Below, piece by piece: positions 3,634 through 56,738 of a stretch of DNA of 64,000 nucleotides. Origin of the DNA: a virus. The stretch covers positions 11,761 through 75,760 of IMG/VR virus record IMGVR_UViG_3300027852_000039; one strand, written 5' to 3'. Position 1 is the stretch's first letter, and every line of letters begins with the position of its first letter. Under the pieces are notes generated by a model that saw nothing but the letters and a program-made list of their open reading frames with translations, made no database searches and was not told where the DNA came from. Position numbers and translations under genes: made by a program.

Positions 3634-4208
3634 GGATTTGTGCAATTGATACGGATACGCGCTCCCCCGGTTACGCGATTTTCGACGGTGTCAAGTGTAT
3701 CGAACATGGAATCATCCCGCTCAAGAGAGGGAATCGAATCAGAGATGTCTTCGCAAAGTGGATGCTGGACCTTGTGTCTCGATCTGATATTCTGGTCATA
3801 GAGGATCAGTTCATCCCGAAGAAGAAACCGAATGTCGCGAAGTCGATGTTGTACCTTGCGGCGGCGAGAGGGAAGCTCGAACTCTTTTTCGAACTGGAAG
3901 GGAAGCGCGTCGTTCGCTTGATGGCGTTCAAGTGGCAGAGCGATGTTCTGTGGACGACCGCGCGGAAAAACAAACCCTGGATGAACCGGGAGGAAGCGGA
4001 GCGACGGACGAAGATGGTCGCGGAGGAGATCGTCGGAGGGGGGGTCACGAACGCGGACGTCGCGAGCGCGATCTGTATCGGGAGCTATTTCGCGAGACTC
4101 TATCAGGTCCACGGGGATCTCGCGCTCGATATAGCGACACAGTCGAAGAAGAAAACCAAGGTGAGCGCAACGAAAAGGGGTCAAACAAGAGGAGGAAAGA
4201 AAAGATGA
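3630..4208 (+). CDS. RuvC-like Holliday junction resolvase
   Basis: ICAIDTDTRSPGYAIF, LVIEDQF, W in MAFKWQ, NADVASAICIG; RNase H-fold motif order. Confidence 0.75.
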   Translation: MRICAIDTDTRSPGYAIFDGVKCIEHGIIPLKRGNRIRDVFAKWMLDLVSRSDILVIEDQFIPKKKPNVAKSMLYLAAARGKLELFFELEGKRVVRLMAFKWQSDVLWTTARKNKPWMNREEAERRTKMVAEEIVGGGVTNADVASAICIGSYFARLYQVHGDLALDIATQSKKKTKVSATKRGQTRGGKKR

Positions 4209-4651
4209 GTACGAAAACCCTCAGACAAGAATGGACATTCTTACACACGATTCTCGTGACGATGGCGGCGCTTATTAGCGTTCTGTTGCTTTTTCAGGGA
4301 CGCGTCTCGGGAGCGGATATCGAAGCGTGGGTTACTCCGGGGGAACCGTTCAATATTGGGTGGGCGGCGGCGAATCCTCCGGGAGATGGATACGAGGTCG
4401 AGCGATCGATGAACGGCGCAGCATGGGCGCTCCTTGGACAGACGACCGAGCAAGCTCAGTTCACGGAGATGCTCACCGGAGGAGCGGCGCAGTACAAGGT
4501 CAAAGCGTACAACCTGATTTCGTACACGGATCTCGACGGGACGCACGAGTCGAGACAGTACGGACCTTATTCAGAGATCTCTTTGACGTTCATCGCGGGA
4601 GAGGAACCCGAAGAGCCTGGACCTTGCGGAAGACCCGGACTTCTCCAATAG
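4205..4651 (+). CDS. exported fibronectin type III-like protein
   Basis: N-terminal hydrophobic signal-like segment; W..GYEVER..W..YKVKAYN..GPYSE FN3 pattern. Confidence 0.7.
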   Translation: MSTKTLRQEWTFLHTILVTMAALISVLLLFQGRVSGADIEAWVTPGEPFNIGWAAANPPGDGYEVERSMNGAAWALLGQTTEQAQFTEMLTGGAAQYKVKAYNLISYTDLDGTHESRQYGPYSEISLTFIAGEEPEEPGPCGRPGLLQ

Positions 4652-4663
4652 GAGGGAGATCGA

Positions 4664-5125
4664 ATGCCCGATCCCGGATCCATTCCTCCGTTCGAGATCT
4701 ACGTTGACGAGATGGCGATGTTCACGAGGAACGTTGTCCGGATCTACGTGAAGGTCAGAGCGAACTATTCCCTCGGGATGATCTCAAACCCGGACGTCAT
4801 TGAAGCGAACAAGGAACACCTTCTCCGACCGGACGGGAAGGGAGAGTTTGAAGTCGTCCCCTACGATCAGACGATGGTCAGAACGATCGACGAGAACGAT
4901 TACTTCCTGGACATCCCTCGTCCGTTATTCGAGCATCTTCTCGAAGCGATGCTGAAGTATGCGAAGAGGAACGGAATCGAACCCGATTCTCTTGCGGACC
5001 TGAAAGCGACACTGAGGGCGAAGGAAGAACATCTCGAAGACTTCCGGAATCTCGTTCAACAGAAGTTCAACATCACGCTTCCTCAACGTCGTGTCGTGAG
5101 GGGAGGTTCTGAGAATGGAAAGTGA
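4664..5125 (+). CDS. hypothetical protein with C-terminal QRRVVRG motif
   Basis: GGAGG RBS; KEEHLEDFRNLV helix. Confidence 0.75.
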   Translation: MPDPGSIPPFEIYVDEMAMFTRNVVRIYVKVRANYSLGMISNPDVIEANKEHLLRPDGKGEFEVVPYDQTMVRTIDENDYFLDIPRPLFEHLLEAMLKYAKRNGIEPDSLADLKATLRAKEEHLEDFRNLVQQKFNITLPQRRVVRGGSENGK

Positions 5126-5525
5126 TCGAGAATACATCGACATCGAGGTCGTCATGGACTGGAGCGATCCGGGTCCGGAGGGGATGTCTGTTCGTCCTGG
5201 AGCGCTGAAGGTCGACGAGTACATGAAGAACTCCGTCGTTCTTTCGAGCTTCGATGTGAGGACTCCTCCGGTCGGAAAGACGACGGAGATCGAGTTCGGT
5301 GAGGACGGGAAGTGTCGGATCAAGATGAAGATCGAACGCACGTACGCGGAAGCGATCCTCGAAGGCGCGATGTTTGCGAACCCTGGATTCATCGCGAAGA
5401 AGTGGACCGAGAAGGACGACGGGACGAAGGAGTACGAAGAGGGCGATCTTCTCTCCATTGGACTCGTCGCGAAACCTCCCGCTGAGAGTCAAGACAATGG
5501 CGAAGATCCCGGATCTAAAGGCTAA
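5115..5525 (+). CDS. catalytically inactive HK97 prohead-protease-like protein
   Basis: Aligns to 39900-41423 protease (EYMKNSVVLSSFD vs EFMKNPVLLQMHD; GFIAKKWTE vs GFIPNSWTE) but lacks His/Ser/Glu. Confidence 0.75.
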   Translation: MESDREYIDIEVVMDWSDPGPEGMSVRPGALKVDEYMKNSVVLSSFDVRTPPVGKTTEIEFGEDGKCRIKMKIERTYAEAILEGAMFANPGFIAKKWTEKDDGTKEYEEGDLLSIGLVAKPPAESQDNGEDPGSKG

Positions 5526-5880
5526 GGTTGACGTGTCGTTGTCCGAACAGTTGAAGATTTTTGTTGAGATAATGAGGGCGTTCGGGATCTCGACAGTGGA
5601 TGCGGCGAAGAACTTCGAAGAGTTCGGGAAAGCGATGAAGAAGATTCAGCCGAAGAACCCGGACGCGGTTGAGATGGATCTCCCCCCTTACGATGACGGT
5701 CTTTCGGATTTCTGCAAGAACACGGTCGCGATAGGAGAACAGGGAAAACCGCAACAGGTCACGAGCTGGAAGGCCACGATCGGACCGACCGGAAGATTTC
5801 CCGCGACCTTCCCGATGGAAGCATCCAAAGGAAGCGACGGATTGTACAACCCACAAACGGAAAAGAAGGAGGAGTCGAAG

Positions 5881-7122
5881 ATGAATGTTGAGTTTTCACG
5901 CGACGTACTCGAAGAAAAACTCTCATACGCGAGGGTCTTCACAGAAGCAAAGGGATCGATGCAACGACTCGACGCGGTCCTCTGTGAAGCGAAGAAGCTG
6001 GAGGGAGGAAGAACCGTCCTTCAGATCACAACGACAAACCTTGAGACGTCCTATGTCGGTCTAGTCGACTGCGATGTGAAGGAGGAGGGGACGGTCTGTC
6101 TCAACGCTGCGAAGCTTCTCGATATTGTGAAGACGTTGAACCGAGAAGCGGCGGCGTCTCTCACCGTGACGAAGAAGGATCCGGAGACGGTCCTCCTGAA
6201 GAGCGGTCGATCGAAGTTCAAGCTGAAACTGTTTCCTCCGGAGGAGTTCCCGAAGCTCTCGAAGGTCAAGTACACGGAGGGGATCCCGATCAACCCGTTC
6301 ACGCTGTCGAGAGCAATCCGGAAAGCGAAGAAGGGAACGTCCAAACAGTTACAGACGGGTCGGGTCGGACTGGAGTCTCTTCTCTTCCGGTTCGAGGGAA
6401 AAGACTTGAAGAAGCTCTTTCTCGTGAATGTCGGGACGGACGGTCATCGTTTGGCATACGTGAGGAACAAGATCCCTCTCGACGAATCTCAGATCGCTTC
6501 ACAAGAGCTTCCTCCCTGGATCAAGGGAGCGGAGGACGGAAAAGCGCGAGAGTACGTTCTTCCGATCTCAGGACTCCTTCAGCTTGAGAGGGTCGTCACG
6601 GACTATCTGTCGTCACTGAAGGAGGGAGACGAGGAGATTCCGGTCGAGGTTGCTCCGGATGAAGAAACCCGAGCGATTGCGTTCGCGATCAACGACTCGA
6701 TTCTTCATCTTCAATGTATCAACATGATGTATCCGGATTTCGAGGCGATCAGGAAGCACGAGTTCGGTGTGACGCTCCACGTGGATCTCCCGCAAATATC
6801 GGCGGCGCTGAAGCGGGTTGCGGTCCTCACAGATTCCAAGCATCGCGAGGTCACGCTGAAGGCGAGATCGACCGAGCTTGATATGAAACACGTCAGCGCG
6901 GAGATCGGAGAAGCTCAGGACACGGTCGCTTGTGAACTCATGGGGGAACCGTGGGAACTGAACTTCAACGTTACGTATCTCCGAGAAGGCGTCCAGGGGA
7001 TCGCGGAGGAGGAGGACGTCTTGATCGAGATCGCGGAGGGAGGAAAACCCGTCCGGATCCGGGGATCGAAAAATGCGTACGCGGACGAGTTCGAGTATAT
7101 CTTGATGCCGCTCAGGATATAG
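5881..7122 (+). CDS. dnaN: DNA polymerase III beta sliding clamp (in-frame upstream extension possible from ATG 5497)
   Basis: TTNLE, AAKLLDIVKTL, KSGRSKFKL, EEFPKL, GTDGHRLA, YPDFE, FNVTYL, YILMPLR; strong AAGGAGGAG RBS before 5881. Confidence 0.93.
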   Translation: MNVEFSRDVLEEKLSYARVFTEAKGSMQRLDAVLCEAKKLEGGRTVLQITTTNLETSYVGLVDCDVKEEGTVCLNAAKLLDIVKTLNREAAASLTVTKKDPETVLLKSGRSKFKLKLFPPEEFPKLSKVKYTEGIPINPFTLSRAIRKAKKGTSKQLQTGRVGLESLLFRFEGKDLKKLFLVNVGTDGHRLAYVRNKIPLDESQIASQELPPWIKGAEDGKAREYVLPISGLLQLERVVTDYLSSLKEGDEEIPVEVAPDEETRAIAFAINDSILHLQCINMMYPDFEAIRKHEFGVTLHVDLPQISAALKRVAVLTDSKHREVTLKARSTELDMKHVSAEIGEAQDTVACELMGEPWELNFNVTYLREGVQGIAEEEDVLIEIAEGGKPVRIRGSKNAYADEFEYILMPLRI

Positions 7123-7140
7123 CGGCGCGGAGGAACAGAG

Positions 7141-7575
7141 ATGTCTGAAGAGAAGAGGGAGAAGCGCTTCAAGGTCTGGAAGGTGTCCACGATCGCGGCG
7201 GGTCTGTTCTTTTGGGGGATCCTTATTCTGTGGGGATACTCGGTCATAAGAATGGCGATCGCGGTTACGCTCGAAGAAACGCTCTCTGAGAGGACGATCT
7301 TCTTTCTGTTGGGTCAAGGGTCTATCATCTCCTTGCTGGTCCTTTTTGTTGGGACTCCGTTCGCGTGGCGGCGCTTCAAGAAGTGGCGCGCGTGGAGAAG
7401 GCGAATCATCAAGGACGATCGCCCTCCCACGGTCCAGGAGATTCATGAAGCGATGCTTGACGCGATCGAACGTCTGACGGGCCGGCGACCGAACACGACC
7501 GAGATCCAGTTCCCCGGAACACCTCCGGAGTTCCTTCCGAAGTTCAATCCAGGACCGCCATATGGGAGTGCATAA
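7141..7575 (+). CDS. membrane protein (2 TM)
   Basis: Two hydrophobic segments; GGAGG RBS. Confidence 0.75.
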   Translation: MSEEKREKRFKVWKVSTIAAGLFFWGILILWGYSVIRMAIAVTLEETLSERTIFFLLGQGSIISLLVLFVGTPFAWRRFKKWRAWRRRIIKDDRPPTVQEIHEAMLDAIERLTGRRPNTTEIQFPGTPPEFLPKFNPGPPYGSA

Positions 7576-7589
7576 AGGAGGACCAGGAA

Positions 7590-7886
7590 ATGAAGAAGCA
7601 CGAATTGAAGACGGACCCGATCGTGTTCGCGGAGACGTGGTCGGGAAAGAAGAACTTCGAGGTCCGCGTGAACGATCGAGACTTCCAGGTCGGAGACGCT
7701 CTCGATCTTTGGGAGACGAGCTTTACGGGCGAGGAGATGAAGAAAGGGTCGTCTCTCATCTATACGGGGAGATACATCGAGGTCGAGGTCGAGTACATCC
7801 TTCACGGTCCGATCTATGGACTCGCGGAGGGATGGGTCATCATGGCGACACGGTTCATCACGAGAGGAACGAAGGATCGCAAATAG
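7590..7886 (+). CDS. DUF3850 / ASCH-PUA-like domain protein
   Basis: HELKT..F...SGKKNFEVRVNDRDFQVGD.L.LWE...YTGR. Confidence 0.88.
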   Translation: MKKHELKTDPIVFAETWSGKKNFEVRVNDRDFQVGDALDLWETSFTGEEMKKGSSLIYTGRYIEVEVEYILHGPIYGLAEGWVIMATRFITRGTKDRK

Positions 7887-7897
7887 GAGGATTGATC

Positions 7898-8161
7898 ATG
7901 GATCCTGAAACCTTCTGGACGAAGTTTCTTCCGGGAGTTCTTACAGTCCTCTTCCTGATTTGGGTTCTGTGGTACGTGGGGATCGACTTGCTAAGATGTT
8001 ACCTTCGACGGCGACGGTTGATCTGTCCGAAGTGTAAGCATCGAGGAAGCGATGGAGGAGGGAACCCCTATTGCGAAGCGCTCGACAGGAAGCTGTACGA
8101 GTACGTCGAGCGATGTTGTAGCTTCGAACGGGGACGAGGGAGGTACGGTCGGATATGCTAG
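7898..8161 (+). CDS. membrane-anchored Cys-rich protein
   Basis: N-terminal TM, CPKC..C..CC; GGAGG RBS. Confidence 0.65.
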   Translation: MDPETFWTKFLPGVLTVLFLIWVLWYVGIDLLRCYLRRRRLICPKCKHRGSDGGGNPYCEALDRKLYEYVERCCSFERGRGRYGRIC

Positions 8162-9240
8162 GACTGATCCGTGAAATGGAGAGGAGGAGGGAGCGAGAGA
8201 TGTTGATCGAAGAGAAGCAATGGACGCCGTTCTTCCCCTGGAAGGCGCTTCTGTACCCGAGAGAATGCGAGGGGATCGTCAAGGGAGACTTCCTCCCTCC
8301 TGTCGTGTTGCATATCTACGTGACGAACAAGTGTAACTCTAATTGTGCGTGGTGCATCATGCGCGAGGAGCGCGCTCTCGGAGGGGAACTCGACAGAGAT
8401 GTTTTTAGAGACATCGTCGAGCAAGCGATCAAGCTCGGAGTGAAAGCGATCCATATCAGCGGAGGAGGGGAGCCGCTTCTTTACAAACATCTCCATATCC
8501 TCGACAGATTTCCGGGGAAGAAGATCCTCTCGACGAACGGGATCGCGATCCGGGACACATACAGCGCGCGAGATCTTTGGAAGCTCTTCGATCGCATCCG
8601 GATCTCGATCGACGCGGGATCGTCCGGAGTATACGACGATGTCAGAGGGGGAGAGCTAACGTTCTGCAAAGTACTCGACAACTGTCGCGCGTTGTCTGAG
8701 GACGACGGGAGGGACGGGACAAAGACGCTCGGACTCGGGTTCGTCCTGGATCATAATAACTGGAAGGACACGTTCGACTTCTGTCAGATTCCGAAGGTCA
8801 GAGATTTTGATGCGGACTTCCTTCACATTCGACCCGCATATTACCCGAGAGGATCGGAAGAGGATCGGATGGTCCGCGAGATTATCCGTCCCGCGTATCA
8901 TCTCTGTGAAGCGGCAAGGGGAGCAACGAACGTTCCGATCTTTGCTATCTCGGACAAGTTCCGGGGATACTGGACCCCGAGGTCGACCGTGTATTGTTAC
9001 GCAACCCCGCTTCACGCGGTCGTGACGGCGACCGCTGAGTTCATCGTCTGTCAAGACGTCTTCATCCGGTTTGGAGACTTGAAGAGACAGCGGTTCGGGG
9101 AGATATGGGGGGGACACGAACACAAGGAAGCGATCGCGAGAATCGGGACCGATAAGTGTCCGCGATGCGTAATGAACAACGCGAACGAAATTATCGAAAA
9201 AGTATTTGTCGAGGATCAAATCATGAAGGAGCTACTATGA
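8155..9240 (+). CDS. radical SAM protein with SPASM/twitch domain
   Basis: CNSNCAWC, SGGGEPLL, STNG, IRISIDAG, C-terminal CYA...C...CPRC; start may be 8200. Confidence 0.92.
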   Translation: MLGLIREMERRREREMLIEEKQWTPFFPWKALLYPRECEGIVKGDFLPPVVLHIYVTNKCNSNCAWCIMREERALGGELDRDVFRDIVEQAIKLGVKAIHISGGGEPLLYKHLHILDRFPGKKILSTNGIAIRDTYSARDLWKLFDRIRISIDAGSSGVYDDVRGGELTFCKVLDNCRALSEDDGRDGTKTLGLGFVLDHNNWKDTFDFCQIPKVRDFDADFLHIRPAYYPRGSEEDRMVREIIRPAYHLCEAARGATNVPIFAISDKFRGYWTPRSTVYCYATPLHAVVTATAEFIVCQDVFIRFGDLKRQRFGEIWGGHEHKEAIARIGTDKCPRCVMNNANEIIEKVFVEDQIMKELL

Positions 9241-27974: not shown

Positions 27975-28312
27975 GACACCAACAGTACAATCTCCGGATA
28001 GAGGTCGAGGAGAAGCGGACCGTCATTCGGATGTCCAAGCTCGGGATGTTGGACATCCTGTCCGCGTTGAGCAATCTGAACCGGATGTCGACAGAGATCT
28101 CGGAGAAGGAGTGGAGGGAGAGGGACGAACCGTTCGTCGTGCGGTTTCTGAGTAAACCGCTCGGAAACATCGAATGGATACTCGATCCGAAATTCGAGCG
28201 CGAGATCCTGGAGCAACAGCGCGCGGAAATCGAGGAAAGAGTCCGCAAGACATGGGGAGCGGCAAATGAGACGAAGGTATTGTCCATGCGGAGCAAGGAT
28301 CGCGGAGGATGA
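27971..28312 (+). CDS. hypothetical protein
   Basis: ATGA overlap. Confidence 0.6.
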   Translation: MRHQQYNLRIEVEEKRTVIRMSKLGMLDILSALSNLNRMSTEISEKEWRERDEPFVVRFLSKPLGNIEWILDPKFEREILEQQRAEIEERVRKTWGAANETKVLSMRSKDRGG

Positions 28313-28772
28313 CAACCCGTGTCCTTTTTGTGGGAAGGAGCGGGAGACGAAGCCGTCGATGTTCACGACGCCGACGTTCTTTCAGGAGAAGGATCCCGTC
28401 AAACTTCTCACAGTGATCGAGGACTACATTGACAAAGGACCGTTCGACGATTCACACATCACGAAGTCGTTTCCGATGATCCCCTTCGTGGAGATCATCG
28501 GAAACGACATGGGGTTAGGGTGCGAGATAACGAAAGACCTGATCTCGAAGACGACGAGTAACTCGCCCATCATGTACTACAAAATGCTTCAGGCGCAAAA
28601 GGACAAGGAGATCGAGAAGCTCAAGGAAGAGATGCGCGGGGAGATCATCAAGGAGCTTGGAATCCCGAAGTCGATCCTGAACATGCGGACTGGACCGGCG
28701 AAGAAGGAGAAGCGAAGACCCACGGAGCGAACCCGGAGGATCATTCGTCCGGGGATGAAGAAGGAGGAATAA
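28266..28772 (+). CDS. Zn-ribbon protein with portal-stem-like segment and C-terminal TRRIIRP
   Basis: CPCG...CPFCG; QKDKEIEKLKEEMRGEIIKELGIP resembles portal QRDMDFGGLRKMAREEVCAILGVP. Confidence 0.7.
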   Translation: MRRRYCPCGARIAEDDNPCPFCGKERETKPSMFTTPTFFQEKDPVKLLTVIEDYIDKGPFDDSHITKSFPMIPFVEIIGNDMGLGCEITKDLISKTTSNSPIMYYKMLQAQKDKEIEKLKEEMRGEIIKELGIPKSILNMRTGPAKKEKRRPTERTRRIIRPGMKKEE

Positions 28773-29272
28773 TGCGATATCCCAAACCGAAGACGTACTT
28801 CATCGAGGTCGACCATTATCTTTCGGACGAGGAACACGACAGGATGCTTCACGAGTGGGGGATGCGAAACCGGAGAATGGGATTCAAGGATGAGCTTATC
28901 CTCCTGGACGGCGGGATGCGTCTCGCGAATCCGGGATCCGTCTGGAAAGCGTTCGTCGGTGGGTTCCTCGTGGCGGCGATGGCGGCGCTCGTGTTCGCGG
29001 TCGTCATGGCGGCGGTCGAGGCAGAGGGAGCAATGCTTCGAAATCCCTTTGAGAGCAACGAGGATGCCGAAAACGAGGGGAATCTCCCTGGACAGATACA
29101 AGTGATCCAGGATTGGAAGGGGGACGATCTGACCTGTATTCCGTGGGAAGTGGCGTGTGTCGAGGACGGAGGGGAGAAGCTTCTCTGTATAATCCCATGC
29201 GGCGACGTCCGCGCGGATCCGGGGGATCTCCTCGTCTGTCCGGACGGACGTCAATACATAGCGGACCCATAA
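28772..29272 (+). CDS. membrane protein with portal-clip-like N-terminus
   Basis: LSDEEHDRMLHEW...LLDGGMRL vs portal LDDDQYDRVMAQW...ILDGGLKF; then a TM helix and Cys-rich tail. Confidence 0.7.
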   Translation: MRYPKPKTYFIEVDHYLSDEEHDRMLHEWGMRNRRMGFKDELILLDGGMRLANPGSVWKAFVGGFLVAAMAALVFAVVMAAVEAEGAMLRNPFESNEDAENEGNLPGQIQVIQDWKGDDLTCIPWEVACVEDGGEKLLCIIPCGDVRADPGDLLVCPDGRQYIADP

Positions 29273-39899: not shown

Positions 39900-41423
39900 A
39901 TGGACAAGAAGCAAGTCTTCGCTCACATCAAAGAAATGAAGGACAGGAAGTTCTTCGCTTATGCTTCGACACGATCTCTCGACCGGGACGGGGAGGTCAT
40001 CCTTCCCGAAGCGTTCAACAACATAATTGAGTTCATGAAGAACCCGGTTCTCTTGCAGATGCACGATTACCAGAAACCCTCTGCCGGAAAGATTTTGAAC
40101 CTCGACATCGATTCGAAGGGACTCCTTTTCGAGGGGGAGTTCGCTCCCACGGACGAAGGTCGAATGTTCAGGACCTTGTACGAAGAGGAATTCATGAACG
40201 CGTTCTCGATCGGGTTCATTCCGAACTCCTGGACCGAGATCGATCCGGAGAACAACGAGACGGTCTATCGTCTGACCACTCCGAACGGAGTCGTTGAGTT
40301 CAACCTTGACGACTACAAGAAAAGCGGGACGGTTTATCGCGTGTACACGGACGTCGAACTTCTCGAAGTATCGGTCGTTCCTGTCCCCGCTAACCCGGAC
40401 GCGCTTCAGCGGATGCACCAGCTTTCCGTAAAGCTCAAGGAGTGGGTCAACAAGCTGGACGTAAAGGGGAAGGACGCGAAGACCGGAGACACGGACGATC
40501 CGAACAAGGACAAGGAGCTTCCCGGACGTGAGATCGAAGTGGGGGACGTGGTTCAACTCGAAACCGAACACGGGTATTTCCTCACGGAAGAGCTTGAAGG
40601 ATTCAAGAGCTTCCGGCGAGTAGACGACGCGGAGGTCGTCGATCACAAGGGAGTCGACGCGATCCTCGGATTCGACGAGGAGAGGAAGGAGACGACCGTC
40701 TGTTACCTGTACAGCGCGGAAGCGTGGACGGAAGAGAAGGCGACCAAGGACGTCAACGCGCGCGAGGTCGAAGGACAGATCGGGAACTTCTACGCGGCGA
40801 AGGGAGAAGGAGAGTCCGAGGGGGGAGACGACAAGGAGGAAAGGAAGCGAGTCATCCCCTACAAGAAGTATCCGACCATCGATCGTTCGTGGGATGCTGG
40901 CGCGGCAAGGAAGCGCCTTGTCTCGTGGGCGGGAGGTCCGGAGAAGGAGGACATCGACTTCTCGAAATTCCGTCTCGGGTTCGGGTGGTACGACGAGTCG
41001 AAAGCGGATGCTGTGACGGCGTACAAGTATCCGCATCACGACGTCATTGACGGCGCGCTGAAGACGAACATTCGCGGTGTCGTCGCGGCGATGCAAGTCG
41101 TCAACGGTGCGCGAGGAGGGGACTCTCTCTCCGACGCGGATAGGAAGAAGCTGTACAACCATCTCGCGAAGCATTATCGAGACGCGGACATGGAACCTCC
41201 CGAGCTGAAGGAGTTCGATGATCCGGAACTCGACCCTGCTCTTGACGCTCTCTTCGAGGTCAAGCGAGAGGTCGCGGACCTTGCGAAGATGGTCAGTGAG
41301 ATCAAAGAGAAAATGGTCCCGAAGTCCGAAGGATCAGGAGATCCGTCTGAGGACACAAAGGACGCGGAAACGTGGGACGCAATCGCGAACGGAGTGAAAG
41401 AGATCTCTGAAGCGGTTCAGTAA
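39900..41423 (+). CDS. HK97-family prohead protease with extra C-terminal domains
   Basis: STRSLDRDGE, LQMHD, AFSIGF, LLEVSVVPVPANP. Confidence 0.93.
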   Translation: MDKKQVFAHIKEMKDRKFFAYASTRSLDRDGEVILPEAFNNIIEFMKNPVLLQMHDYQKPSAGKILNLDIDSKGLLFEGEFAPTDEGRMFRTLYEEEFMNAFSIGFIPNSWTEIDPENNETVYRLTTPNGVVEFNLDDYKKSGTVYRVYTDVELLEVSVVPVPANPDALQRMHQLSVKLKEWVNKLDVKGKDAKTGDTDDPNKDKELPGREIEVGDVVQLETEHGYFLTEELEGFKSFRRVDDAEVVDHKGVDAILGFDEERKETTVCYLYSAEAWTEEKATKDVNAREVEGQIGNFYAAKGEGESEGGDDKEERKRVIPYKKYPTIDRSWDAGAARKRLVSWAGGPEKEDIDFSKFRLGFGWYDESKADAVTAYKYPHHDVIDGALKTNIRGVVAAMQVVNGARGGDSLSDADRKKLYNHLAKHYRDADMEPPELKEFDDPELDPALDALFEVKREVADLAKMVSEIKEKMVPKSEGSGDPSEDTKDAETWDAIANGVKEISEAVQ

Positions 41424-49050: not shown

Positions 49051-49788
49051 ATGGATAATCGAACGGTGTCAGTCGTGACGTGTCTTTGGAACAACATGGA
49101 ATATTGGGATCTCTTCTATTCCTCGCTGAAGAGACTGTCCGCGAGGATCGATGAGCTTATCGTCGTGGACAACGGGTCGGAAGACGACACGGCGAGGATC
49201 CTCGAACAATGTCCGGACGTCACGTTCGTACGACTGGAGGAAAACCTCTTTGAAGGCGGCGGGGTTCGGTGTGCGATGAAGAAGGCGACCGGAGATCTCG
49301 TCTTCAAGTGCGACCCGGACATCGAGTTCACGAGCAACGAATGGCAAGAACAAATGATCGAGATGTTGGACAAGGGCGAGGAGATCGGCGGCGTGGTCTG
49401 TGAGCCTTATTTCTGGCATCGATGCAAGCATAACGAGTATCAGGAAGCGAGCGTCCTGATCGGGACTCTGTTCCTCCTGGAGAGGAAGGTTCTTGATGCG
49501 TGCGGGTATTGGGACGCGGCGCTCAAGTATGGGACGAACGAGTTCGATTACGCGGTGCGGATGCGGCGTGAGGGGTTCCGGATCGCGATCGCGGACTTCA
49601 TCCCGATCAATCATTTTGTAAACCATGCAAGACTCCGAGAGATCGGAACATTCGATGTCGGTCCTCTTATTCAAGAGTCCTGGAGGGCGCTCTTCGAGAA
49701 GCTCGGGACAATGGAGTATTGGGAGATCGACGTGAACACGAGGTTCAACGGGGAATGGGACAGAGCTTCCAAACCTCCGGAGGTCTGA
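49051..49788 (+). CDS. glycosyltransferase family 2
   Basis: ELIVVDNGSEDDT, ATGD..F.CDPD, E.DY..R. Confidence 0.9.
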   Translation: MDNRTVSVVTCLWNNMEYWDLFYSSLKRLSARIDELIVVDNGSEDDTARILEQCPDVTFVRLEENLFEGGGVRCAMKKATGDLVFKCDPDIEFTSNEWQEQMIEMLDKGEEIGGVVCEPYFWHRCKHNEYQEASVLIGTLFLLERKVLDACGYWDAALKYGTNEFDYAVRMRREGFRIAIADFIPINHFVNHARLREIGTFDVGPLIQESWRALFEKLGTMEYWEIDVNTRFNGEWDRASKPPEV

Positions 49789-53905: not shown

Positions 53906-54363
53906 TCCTTCAGGAGAGACACCCTCCCGTAGACGGCGGGAGAACAGTCAAGGCGATTTGTTACGGAGTCCAGGACTTCGACGTCTTGACCTGTCCCGAG
54001 GAAGGCGCGCTCCTTCTCTGGAGACTTTCGTTCGAGATCGGGATGAAGGGGATCGAAGAGATCCGAGTCCGGTTCGGTCCGACCTTCGGGTACTCTGCGG
54101 TCCTCGTGATCGAGGAGTCTCACATCGCGGTGCATACCTGGACGGAGACGGGAGATCTCCGGATCATCGTGGACACTTGCAAGGGATTTTCGAAGCGGAC
54201 GCTGAAGGAATTCTTGAACAGAGAACTCTGTCCGAACTATATTCACATCTCAGAGATTCGCCGGAATCGGCCGGCTTCTTGGGTTCGCCTTTACCTGAAG
54301 GCGAGAAAACACCTTTCCCGGAGTCGCATCGGACGACGTAACGGGACACGGAAGGAGAAATGA
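53902..54363 (+). CDS. speD: S-adenosylmethionine decarboxylase proenzyme
   Basis: G.SAVLVIEESHIAVHTW.E...TC; pyruvoyl-forming ESH site. Confidence 0.85.
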   Translation: MILQERHPPVDGGRTVKAICYGVQDFDVLTCPEEGALLLWRLSFEIGMKGIEEIRVRFGPTFGYSAVLVIEESHIAVHTWTETGDLRIIVDTCKGFSKRTLKEFLNRELCPNYIHISEIRRNRPASWVRLYLKARKHLSRSRIGRRNGTRKEK

Positions 54364-56738
54364 ACATGCCGACTTACTCGATCATTATTCCCACGTTCAA
54401 CGGACTTCAGGTCTTGACGCAGTGCATGACCGCGCTCTTCAAGCATACGCGGGACTTCGAGGCCATTGTCGTCGACAACGGGTCGACGGACGGGACGCGC
54501 GGATACCTGGAGGACATCGAGAAGCGTCACGGGTATGCGGTGAGAACGATCTTCAACGAAATGAACATGGGGTTCGCTCGTGCGATCAATCAGGGACTCG
54601 AAGCGGCGAAAGGGGATTTCCTCGTATGGTTGAACAACGATGTTCTCGTAACTCCGGATTGGGCAGAGCATCTCCGATACGCCATGAACAACGCGCAACA
54701 GGTCAAGAACATCGATCGCGTCGGACTGATCGGACCCTGTACGAACTTTGCGGCGGGAAGACAGGCGGTCACTGACGCGAACGGAAATCCTCCGAGATAC
54801 CATCTCGGGAACCTGGACACCTTCGCGACGAACGCGCACAAACAGAACTCTCATAACTGGTACGACACGGGATTTCTCTCGGGGTTCTGTCTCATGATGA
54901 AGCGCGAGGTATACGAGGACGTCGGTCCCGTGGAGGAATGGTCCGAGTTCATGGAGGAAGGGAAGAGCAATCCCGGAGGATACGAAGACAACGACTACGT
55001 CGCGCGAGCGTGGCTAGCGGGATATCGATCGCTCATCTGTGGCGACACCTTCGTTCATCACTTCGGGAGCGTGACGCTTCAGAAGTTCCCGGACATGCGC
55101 GGGGGAGTGGCGAACGGAGAATTCCTCGTGAAGAAGTGGCAGAAGGAGTTCAACAAAGAGGGACAGAAGCTCGTCGCCGGGATCCGCGTGAAGTGGACAC
55201 AGAAGGATTGTCCTCTTCAGGAAGTCCTCGACAACGTCATCCGGTTCGCGGACGAGATCGTGATCGTGGATAACGGAATGTTGATCGAGGACAAGATGGT
55301 CGTCGCGGAACATCACGGAGTCGTCGATATCATCGAGACGGATGGACTTGACGAGCGGCGGGACAGGAATCTCCTCATCGCCATGGCGCGAGAAGCGGGA
55401 GCGGACTGGATGATCTCGGTCGATGCGGACGAGAAGTTCGAAGACAAGTTCGATCGAGCGTACGTCGAGCGTTTGATGAATCCTCCCTTCCCGATGTTCG
55501 CGTACTGCTTTCACTGGAATACGATGTGGGATTCCGTCGACAGGTTCAGGACGGACGGCGTCTTCGGACAGATCAGCGGCGCGAGAATGTTCCGGATGGT
55601 CCCCGGAGTGAAGATCGTCCTCGGGAACGATAAGGGGTTTCATTGCGGCAACATCCCGAACCATCCGAGCGAGTTCGTTCGATGGACCAACATCCGGATC
55701 AAGCATTACGGATACGTCGACCTCGAGGAGCGTCAAAGGAAATTCGATTGGTACGAGAAGAACGACACGGACAAACGACCGGAGTTAATCGGGGGACAGG
55801 ATTACGGACATCTCGTTCACAAGGACGTTAGTCTCTCCAATTGGGAAGACGATTGCGGAGTGACGCTGTGTATGTTGGGGAGGAACGAGGAAGAGTTCGT
55901 CCTCGAAGCACTTCGTCAATACTGGAGCTTCGTCGATCGGGTCGTGTTCGTCGATACGGGGTCGACGGACAAGACGAAGGAATATGCGAAGCTCATGGGT
56001 GCGGACGTCTTCGATTACAAGTGGAAGGACGACTTCTCAGCGGCGAGGAACTTCGCGTCCTCGAAGGCGACATCCCCGTGGATCTGGCAGATGGACCCGG
56101 ACGAGGACATCCCGCTCTCGAAGGGATGTCTCCCGGAGCTTCGGCGCATGATGCAGCGAGATGTCCATTGCATCCTGTTCTCGTTCCAAAACGTACATCC
56201 GAACGGTCCGGTCACGTTCTCCGAGAACATCCGCATGTTCCGGAGAGATCCTCGACTGTGGTTCGAGGGATGCGCTCACGAGACCTTCGACGAGGCGCTC
56301 GTGAACAACAAGGGTCTTCGAGTGGAGAAAGCGGGGTTCTCTTGCGTACACAAGGGATACCTCCGATCGAACGAGTTCGTCGCCGGGAAGATGAAATACT
56401 ATTACGATCTGAACCTCGAACAAGTGAAGAGGAACCCGAAGGACGTCCGTGCGATGCACTCGATCGCAACGCATCTCCTGAACCTCGGGAAGATTGACGA
56501 AGCAATGCAATGGCTGCTCAAAGCGGACGCGACGAAACCGTATCTTCTGGCCAAGAGACATCTCGCGCAGTTGTACGCGCGGTTCGCTGCGGATCAGTGC
56601 CGAGAAGCTCTCGGAGGATGCAAGTTCGTTCGGGTTGAAGATCATCAGTACATGGAGAACTTCATGAACGCGATGGGTCAGTTCAAGTTTATCAATATCC
56701 CTGTTCCGCACGAAGGGGAGAAACCCGTCGAGGGATGA
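54360..56738 (+). CDS. multi-domain glycosyltransferase (three GT2 domains plus TPR)
   Basis: VVDNGSTDGT/LNND; VDNG/VDADE/HYGY; VDTGSTDKT/DDFSAARN/DPDE/HE/H.GY; C-terminal TPR-like helices. Confidence 0.92.
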   Translation: MNMPTYSIIIPTFNGLQVLTQCMTALFKHTRDFEAIVVDNGSTDGTRGYLEDIEKRHGYAVRTIFNEMNMGFARAINQGLEAAKGDFLVWLNNDVLVTPDWAEHLRYAMNNAQQVKNIDRVGLIGPCTNFAAGRQAVTDANGNPPRYHLGNLDTFATNAHKQNSHNWYDTGFLSGFCLMMKREVYEDVGPVEEWSEFMEEGKSNPGGYEDNDYVARAWLAGYRSLICGDTFVHHFGSVTLQKFPDMRGGVANGEFLVKKWQKEFNKEGQKLVAGIRVKWTQKDCPLQEVLDNVIRFADEIVIVDNGMLIEDKMVVAEHHGVVDIIETDGLDERRDRNLLIAMAREAGADWMISVDADEKFEDKFDRAYVERLMNPPFPMFAYCFHWNTMWDSVDRFRTDGVFGQISGARMFRMVPGVKIVLGNDKGFHCGNIPNHPSEFVRWTNIRIKHYGYVDLEERQRKFDWYEKNDTDKRPELIGGQDYGHLVHKDVSLSNWEDDCGVTLCMLGRNEEEFVLEALRQYWSFVDRVVFVDTGSTDKTKEYAKLMGADVFDYKWKDDFSAARNFASSKATSPWIWQMDPDEDIPLSKGCLPELRRMMQRDVHCILFSFQNVHPNGPVTFSENIRMFRRDPRLWFEGCAHETFDEALVNNKGLRVEKAGFSCVHKGYLRSNEFVAGKMKYYYDLNLEQVKRNPKDVRAMHSIATHLLNLGKIDEAMQWLLKADATKPYLLAKRHLAQLYARFAADQCREALGGCKFVRVEDHQYMENFMNAMGQFKFINIPVPHEGEKPVEG

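Follow-up and report, generated by a model that had tools for sequence, protein, structure and literature searches.

The window analyzed here is a stretch of 64,000 nucleotides (nt), which corresponds to bases 11761-75760 of the 75,760-base virus record IMGVR_UViG_3300027852_000039 of IMG/VR, for which CheckV estimated a completeness of 58%. All gene-sized open reading frames (ORFs) whose codon usage resembles that of real genes were located on the plus strand of the window. The ORF at 5115-5525, the subject of this study, encodes a small acidic protein that resembles the prohead proteases of the family Peptidase_S78, and in which the invariant His, Ser and Glu of these enzymes are replaced.

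ORF 5115-5525 belongs to a block in which a RuvC-like resolvase (phrog_827, E 3e-6), an immunoglobulin (Ig)/Hoc-like protein, an orphan ORF (4664-5125), ORF 5115-5525 itself and a beta sliding clamp follow each other; a radical S-adenosylmethionine enzyme and an epimerase are encoded further on, beyond the clamp. The ATG of ORF 5115-5525 falls within the final 11 nt of ORF 4664-5125, which makes joint translation of the two probable, and its own final 29 nt overlap the ATG (5497) of the frame leading into the clamp. When the plus strand from 4283 to 8919 was scanned for promoter- or terminator-like sites, none were seen. Because of the overlaps with both neighbours and the lack of an internal promoter or terminator, ORF 5115-5525 is placed inside a tightly packed block of genes on the same strand. 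A first-pass annotation of the sequence had described an intact frame behind a GGAGG ribosome-binding site, next to the beta clamp and 35 kb away from the head module. This description holds: a Shine-Dalgarno-like GGGGAGG precedes the ATG, a clamp ORF with PF00712 and PF02768 follows directly downstream, and the distance to the canonical prohead protease gene at 39900-41423 is 34.8 kb (Table 1).

To judge coding status, 12 confidently assigned genes were used to train a codon model; these genes were themselves scored without leave-one-out and span 0.20-0.67 bits/codon, and ORF 5115-5525 was outside the training set. It scored 0.477 bits/codon in frame, within the range of the training genes, and -0.46 and -0.66 bits/codon in the other two frames. 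The frame is free of stop codons and frameshifts across the full domain.

Fold and catalytic residues of ORF 5115-5525

The S78 reference set comprised 56 homologs. Fifty were picked by eye, for higher query coverage, from the 120 listed of 909 hits at E ≤ 0.001, and six were single-stretch phmmer hits; the set includes P0015 and the phage's own prohead protease and excludes ORF 5115-5525. Using hhalign, ORF 5115-5525 was aligned to the profile of this set with a probability of 98.6% (E 7.2e-16) over 114 columns, corresponding to its residues 8-122. With the phage's own protease, BLASTP gave 29% identity over 92 residues, with E 2e-5 as a single comparison and E 5.6e-4 for the same pair in an all-against-all comparison of the 84 plus-strand ORFs of the window. 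The motifs KN.V.L, PPVGK, GF....W and LL..G.V..P are common to the S78 proteases and ORF 5115-5525.

A HMMER scan of 1.84 billion representative proteins at E ≤ 0.001 returned 15 proteins, including ORF 5115-5525 itself. Seven of the 14 non-self hits matched in a single stretch that covered residues 9-122, and each of these proteins carries PF04586. The other seven are multi-repeat proteins; the best-scoring of them, P0003, owes its low E-value (2e-13) to summation. Three of these seven were scanned with Pfam and were all Flg_new (Listeria-Bacteroides repeat) proteins, and the other four were judged by their per-repeat scores alone. A kinship with Flg_new was rejected as an artefact, in which between 3 and 12 weak repeat matches, scoring -2.5 to 17.6 bits apiece, had been summed. 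A profile of 57 sequences found no protease at E ≤ 1 among the PDB sequences.

The exact sequence of ORF 5115-5525 is contained in the ESM Atlas with a model of its own (predicted template-modelling (TM) score 0.64, mean predicted local distance difference test value 0.69). The structural clusters nearest to this model are PF04586 clusters, with TM scores of 0.78, 0.75 and 0.72 normalized by the query over ∼124-130 aligned residues, while Peptidase_S77 clusters appeared as low-ranked feature hits only (rank 25). As the model was derived from a language model and not from an alignment, it is partly independent evidence of the S78 fold. The resemblance that the first-pass annotation had described was thus reproduced, beyond chance, and the alignments together with the predicted model confirm ORF 5115-5525 as a true Peptidase_S78 homolog with the S78 fold.

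The canonical protease of the same genome offers a direct comparison. It consists of an S78 domain and a long C-terminal part, and it matches TIGR01543 with E 6.8e-14 and 52.2 bits (curated cut-off 59). When all six frames of the complete record were searched with PF04586, this gene at 39900 was the only match.

Column counts were taken from a 57-row alignment of the 56 homologs and ORF 5115-5525. The three alignment blocks quoted in the first-pass annotation were reproduced by BLASTP, MAFFT and hhalign, and they place Phe46 in the His column, Asn89 in the Ser column and Ser114 in the Glu column; for all replaced residues listed in Table 1, the hhalign pairings agree with the alignment columns. 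The protein contains a single Cys and no His anywhere. The His and Ser columns are taken here to be the catalytic residues of HK97 gp4. For the Glu column the assignment is of another kind, since invariance (56/56) is all that would support a role as the third member of the triad. Hence, the claim that all three catalytic residues are replaced stands as the replacement of three invariant columns, two of which are presumed to be catalytic. In T4 gp21, the triad is reported to be His-Ser-Asp (PMC5694885).

The replacements extend beyond the three columns. ORF 5115-5525 keeps 10 of the 23 columns that are conserved to at least 90%, compared with 22 of 23 in the phage's own protease and 19-23 in seven active homologs that were checked alike. 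Of the polar conserved columns it retains one in ten, versus nine of the 13 non-polar ones (Fisher p 0.0097), and the kept core residues are N39, V41, G84, G91, F92, L112, L113, V118 and P121. This pattern of lost polar and kept non-polar columns indicates that the losses hit residues of a functional type and that the core was retained. ORF 5115-5525 stops directly after the last core strand and so has neither the conserved NP.AL segment nor any of what follows it towards the C-terminus; the 56 homologs are 228-529 amino acids (aa) long, compared with 136 aa for ORF 5115-5525.

As far as can be read from its residues, the product of ORF 5115-5525 cannot act as a Ser-His protease, which can be regarded as shown or nearly so. 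The label of a pseudoenzyme, used by the first-pass annotation, is apt at the level of sequence: the fold is kept, the catalytic motif is lost and the codon usage is that of a gene. Of the features that define S78 and TIGR01543 proteins, ORF 5115-5525 lacks the curated score, the His, the Ser, the residues of the ELLExS motif, the DR motif, the C-terminal extension and a location of its gene between those for portal and major capsid protein. Therefore, it should not be annotated as a prohead protease.

Its protein identity to any S78 member in the 57-row alignment is only 22-34%. Neutral decay across such a divergence would wipe out both the codon signal and the retention of core residues, so that ORF 5115-5525 is probably a live gene, and with a codon usage like that of real genes it reads as a maintained pseudo-protease and not as debris.

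Table 1. Positions of the genes, signals and residues discussed; they refer to the window, and for the phrog_16618 proteins the sequence handle stands before the position.
Feature	Position	Strand	Details
Gene for a Peptidase_S78-fold protein, predicted to be catalytically dead	5115..5525	+	136 aa, isoelectric point (pI) 4.45, zero His
Shine-Dalgarno-like GGGGAGG	5101..5107	+	7 nt upstream of the ATG of ORF 5115-5525; direct sequence reading
Phe46 of ORF 5115-5525, codon TTC	5250..5252	+	His column, 56/56 S78 homologs
Asn89 of ORF 5115-5525, codon AAC	5379..5381	+	Ser column, 56/56 S78 homologs
Ser114 of ORF 5115-5525, codon TCC	5454..5456	+	Glu column, 56/56 S78 homologs
Gly116 of ORF 5115-5525			Two residues past Ser114; Ser column, 56/56 S78 homologs
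Gly20 of ORF 5115-5525			Asp column (DR motif), 56/56 S78 homologs
Pro21 of ORF 5115-5525			Arg column (DR motif), 55/56 S78 homologs
Ser40 of ORF 5115-5525			Pro column, 56/56 S78 homologs
Orphan upstream neighbour	4664..5125	+	153 aa; coding by codon usage
Beta sliding clamp ORF	5497..7122	+	541 aa; PF00712, PF02768; phrog_947 E 1.4e-44; domain from ∼5881
Canonical prohead protease	39900..41423	+	507 aa; residues 25-169 match PF04586 (E 1.1e-13); flanked by the portal and major capsid genes
River4 gp63 (phrog_16618)	L001 4995-5363
pVp-1 phrog_16618 protein	L005 4001-4366		Further members in L006-L008

Relatives in Vibrio phages and origin of the gene

ORF 5115-5525 is an orphan, represented by one member sequence on two contigs. 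A word-indexed search for close relatives found only ORF 5115-5525 itself (one of seven candidates), and no close relative was present among the 1.84 billion representative proteins. A tblastn search of 50,697 phage records gave matches in seven records at E 0.7-4. Pattern scans yielded 158 candidates in IMG/VR, of which one was a relative, namely phage River4 itself, and 268 candidates in metagenomes, of which none was confirmed. With a profile of ORF 5115-5525 and River4 gp63, four proteins were obtained among 34 candidates, two of them new. Kin phages were also sought through the clamp, and neither of the two pattern matches was confirmed.

The only small relatives found are the proteins of phrog_16618 from T5-like Vibrio phages, to which the link is weak. 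ORF 5115-5525 matched phrog_16618 in hmmscan with E 0.004 and 18.4 bits, which at library scale becomes 18 bits and E 200. Against three members of the family, hhalign gave a probability of 90.4% (E 1.4e-6), and against River4 gp63 the identity was 32% over 114 residues (E 4e-8, single comparison). The family is itself S78-like (hhalign 93.3%, E 2.7e-7). A point against equating it with ORF 5115-5525 is that the match of River4 gp63 to the protease of River4 itself is no more than marginal (E 0.009). In the ESM Atlas, the same viral clusters of 114-144 aa, among them one of 114 aa with 71 members and one of 128 aa with 53 members, are nearest by features to both ORF 5115-5525 and phrog_16618, which serves as a lead only.

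phrog_16618 was found in 51 Vibrio-phage records, GenBank and RefSeq copies being counted separately, with identities down to 31%. The slot of the gene is constant: a transcriptional regulator lies two genes upstream in four of the five records viewed, and a nicotinamide adenine dinucleotide (NAD)-dependent ligase lies two genes downstream in both of the records that were viewed with wide flanks. A canonical PF04586 protease is likewise encoded in River4 and in pVp-1, and in River4 it is ∼41 kb away from the phrog_16618 gene. Thus, an unrelated phage lineage shows the same layout, with an active S78 protease in the head module and a small, degenerate S78-like protein encoded among replication genes, and the presence of such a protein beside replication genes in these 51 records suggests that ORF 5115-5525 is no one-off.

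Like ORF 5115-5525, the phrog_16618 proteins are small (121-122 vs 136 aa), mostly acidic and encoded among replication genes, and they carry an aromatic residue in the His column, which is Phe or Tyr in all eight sequences when ORF 5115-5525 is aligned with seven members. Pro90 and Gly116 are invariant across the same eight sequences, and both are derived with respect to the 56 proteases. Unlike ORF 5115-5525, to which their link is marginal, the phrog_16618 proteins have an invariant Ser and, close to the C-terminus, an invariant His-x-Asp. The Ser is put on the catalytic Ser by hhalign and elsewhere by MAFFT and BLAST. Because of this Ser and the His-x-Asp, the family may not be dead; judging from the conserved residues, the His-x-Asp may contain a migrated catalytic His, and the proteins may be active mini-proteases. 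A check of homologs for the same substitutions, as proposed in the first-pass annotation, thus gives a mixed picture: the canonical His is missing in 7/7 members of phrog_16618, but the Ser may be kept and another invariant His is found elsewhere.

The origin of ORF 5115-5525 was addressed with a quick maximum-likelihood tree of 64 rows and 140 columns. ORF 5115-5525 grouped with the Vibrio-phage family with a Shimodaira-Hasegawa-like approximate likelihood ratio test value of 78 and a long-branch warning, so that the joining is possibly false; its terminal branch is 4.1 changes per column long, compared with a median of 0.27. A clade of ORF 5115-5525 and the phage's own protease was not rejected by the approximately unbiased test (p 0.655), and the tree constrained to this clade surpassed the free quick tree by 6.2 log-likelihood units. 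The term paralog, as used in the first-pass annotation, holds only insofar as the genome encodes two homologs; by the tree, the phage's own protease is neither shown to have been duplicated nor is this rejected. Both a duplication within the genome and an import are compatible with these tree results.

The nearest precedent in print is SPN3US gp117 with its short relatives, 201phi2-1 gp206 (145 aa) and PhiPA3 gp143 (136 aa), which are described as diverged paralogs of giant-phage prohead proteases (PMC5694885). In 2017, the authors of this description regarded a paralog of the gp117 type as unprecedented and its function as unknown (PMC5694885). By description, to which the comparison is confined, gp117 resembles ORF 5115-5525 in being a second, short and highly diverged homolog of the phage's own prohead protease that is encoded elsewhere in the genome. 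It differs in belonging to MEROPS S80, the T4 gp21/phiKZ type, and not to S78, and in keeping the Ser and the Asp, with only an aligned His missing (PMC5694885). In the literature covered, which leaves out most subscription journals, no S78-type dead copy was found, only PMC5694885 joined a prohead protease with inactive copies, and phrog_16618 was nowhere found to be recognized as S78-like.

Possible roles of the predicted non-catalytic S78 protein

Taken as a whole, the observations are best explained by an expressed-looking gene whose product has the S78 fold, does not catalyze proteolysis and would have a binding role, to which we assign a probability of roughly 0.7. For an enzyme that is dead but has kept its fold, the simplest reading is that of a binding module. 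Protease families are known to include dead members with a binding or regulatory action, namely the iRhoms and CspA/CspC of Clostridioides, which differ from ORF 5115-5525 in fold and organism.

The product of ORF 5115-5525 might be a binding protein that mimics the head protease in the cytoplasm and is produced ahead of, or separately from, the assembly of heads. That this proposal of a mimic is right at all is given somewhat less than even odds. The likeliest partner would be the phage's own free protease, which would be held inactive outside proheads, or else a host factor that otherwise meets the protease, for example the protease-sensing activation loops of the cyclases of antiphage signaling systems based on cyclic oligonucleotides (CBASS); it is unlikely, though conceivable, that one of these two is the actual partner. 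Prohead-protease activity was described to cleave the activation loop of a nucleotidyltransferase of the cGAS/DncV-like type (CD-NTase) and to turn CBASS on in a manner that requires the protease active site (PMC12991175). A mimic that lowered the free protease activity or covered the loop would blunt the CBASS sensor. With CBASS triggered by prohead-protease cleavage of the cyclase, as in the 2026 preprint, a protease mimic becomes a concrete and cheaply testable candidate for counter-defence. The wider proposal, that tail-less dead protease copies made ahead of assembly are a counter-defence against the 'tripwire' loops of CBASS CD-NTases and that phrog_16618 is the same device, is a long shot. 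If it were true, degenerate S78 copies would be a widespread and unrecognized class of anti-defence proteins.

Several observations weigh against a maintained binding protein or against its role as a mimic. Nothing ties this phage or its host to CBASS, and the usual place for genes that regulate head assembly is the head module. The curated models miss ORF 5115-5525, with no match in Pfam or NCBIfam at E ≤ 1. The loss of nine of the ten conserved polar columns implies that the former active-site face was rebuilt, and this speaks against a substrate groove that is still intact. Long chance ORFs are common in this genome, and ORF 5115-5525 itself is overlapped by two on the minus strand, of 177 and 139 aa, so that the intact frame alone is weak evidence. 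Since ORF 5115-5525 has no close homolog, selection cannot be estimated from the ratio of nonsynonymous to synonymous substitutions (dN/dS). The case, as read from the sequence, is clean and testable, yet it is based on one orphan sequence.

The strongest competitor, although improbable, is a re-use of the S78 fold in an accessory protein of replication, recombination or the early programme, which would have nothing to do with proteases or capsids and would do the same job as phrog_16618. Such a job would fit the tight packing of ORF 5115-5525 between the RuvC-like resolvase region and the clamp, the fixed slot of phrog_16618 near a regulator and an NAD-dependent ligase, and what the two have in common, which is the hmmscan match at E 0.004, the hhalign probability of 90%, Pro90, Gly116 and the aromatic residue in the His column. 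However, this explanation leans on the link to phrog_16618, which is weak at library scale (18 bits, E 200) and in tblastn (E 0.7-4), and the tree program warned that the grouping of these two long branches may be false. Moreover, the pI of the protein is 4.45, hence acidic, and reading its sequence revealed no motif for binding DNA or the clamp.

Less probable again is a decaying, functionless remnant of a duplicated or imported protease gene. The protein has lost all catalytic residues and the C-terminal part, its terminal branch is of great length (4.1 vs a median of 0.27), and the gene is a single-sequence orphan in a genome in which chance ORFs are common; all of this could be expected from a remnant. 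But a remnant should not have a codon usage as strong as that of bona fide genes at 22-34% protein identity, nor losses concentrated in polar functional columns with the core kept. It would also have to have preserved a domain without stop or frameshift, a ribosome-binding site and the coupling to both neighbours.

The two remaining explanations are together very improbable. That the resemblance to S78 arose by chance or from composition could be suspected from the lack of a Pfam or NCBIfam hit and from the repeat-summation artefacts that make up 7/14 of the non-self phmmer hits, but it has very little probability against an hhalign probability of 98.6%, seven independent single-stretch S78 hits and structure-based TM scores of up to 0.78. 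Least credible of all is a protease that still works through unconventional residues, for although pseudoenzymes sometimes have migrated catalytic residues, as has been reported (PMC10211241), and the Vibrio-phage family keeps an invariant Ser and a His-x-Asp elsewhere, ORF 5115-5525 has no His, one Cys and an Asn in the Ser column.

Prohead proteases are regarded as single-purpose assembly enzymes, and a maintained copy that does not cut and is encoded far from the head genes would mean that their fold is used otherwise. Even if counter-defence fails as an explanation, the S78 origin of ORF 5115-5525 and the S78-likeness of phrog_16618 give a structural handle on proteins that are otherwise 'hypothetical'.

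Neighbouring genes and further observations in the window

For the upstream neighbour, ORF 4664-5125, no phage match was obtained by tblastn and the Pfam matches were weak (E 0.09-0.17). A role as a late-transcription coactivator like T4 gp33 was considered for this ORF and set aside, its sole support being a Pfam match with E 0.089 over 21 residues, and the tblastn search having given no phage match. The C-terminal end of the protein, ...RRVVRGGSENGK, is a near-copy of RR[IV][IV]RP.

Downstream of ORF 5115-5525, the region 5497-5880 forms 128 codons in frame and upstream of the clamp domain; homology to clamps begins at about residue 117-141. The region is coding by codon usage (0.528 bits/codon) and matches no family. 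It may be an N-terminal extension of the clamp, or it may reflect an upstream start that yields a second isoform. A protease gene split by a frameshift, of which the C-terminal half would have survived as 5497-5880 by analogy to SPN3US gp117/gp118, was rejected: the region shows no link to the S78 C-terminal part, with a BLASTP E of 0.48 and an hhalign probability of 0.7% on one short NPDA motif.

The Ig/Hoc-like protein of the block, encoded at 4208-4651, is a small protein whose N-terminal segment is hydrophobic and whose Ig/Hoc-like domain matches phrog_10993 (E 3.8e-5), and its gene is placed between the resolvase and the replication genes. For a 199-aa ORF at 7562-8161, the codon model gave -0.125 in frame and 0.202 in the +1 frame, and the gene call may be wrong.

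Two ORFs resemble parts of the phage's own portal protein. Residues 11-51 of ORF 28772-29272 resemble portal residues 237-277 and are followed by a hydrophobic stretch; the BLASTP E-value was 1e-4 as a single comparison and 0.003 among the 84 ORFs. A weaker resemblance (E 0.009) connects ORF 28266-28772 with portal residues 352-449. As sequence matches, both resemblances are suggestive and no more. In the late region, the ORFs at 49051-49788 and 54360-56738 are alike in their N-terminal ∼115 residues (23% identity, E 4e-4). Finally, the adjacent small ORFs at 620-919 and 916-1158 are paralogous, with 30% identity over 60 residues and E 4.8e-10 among the 84 ORFs.

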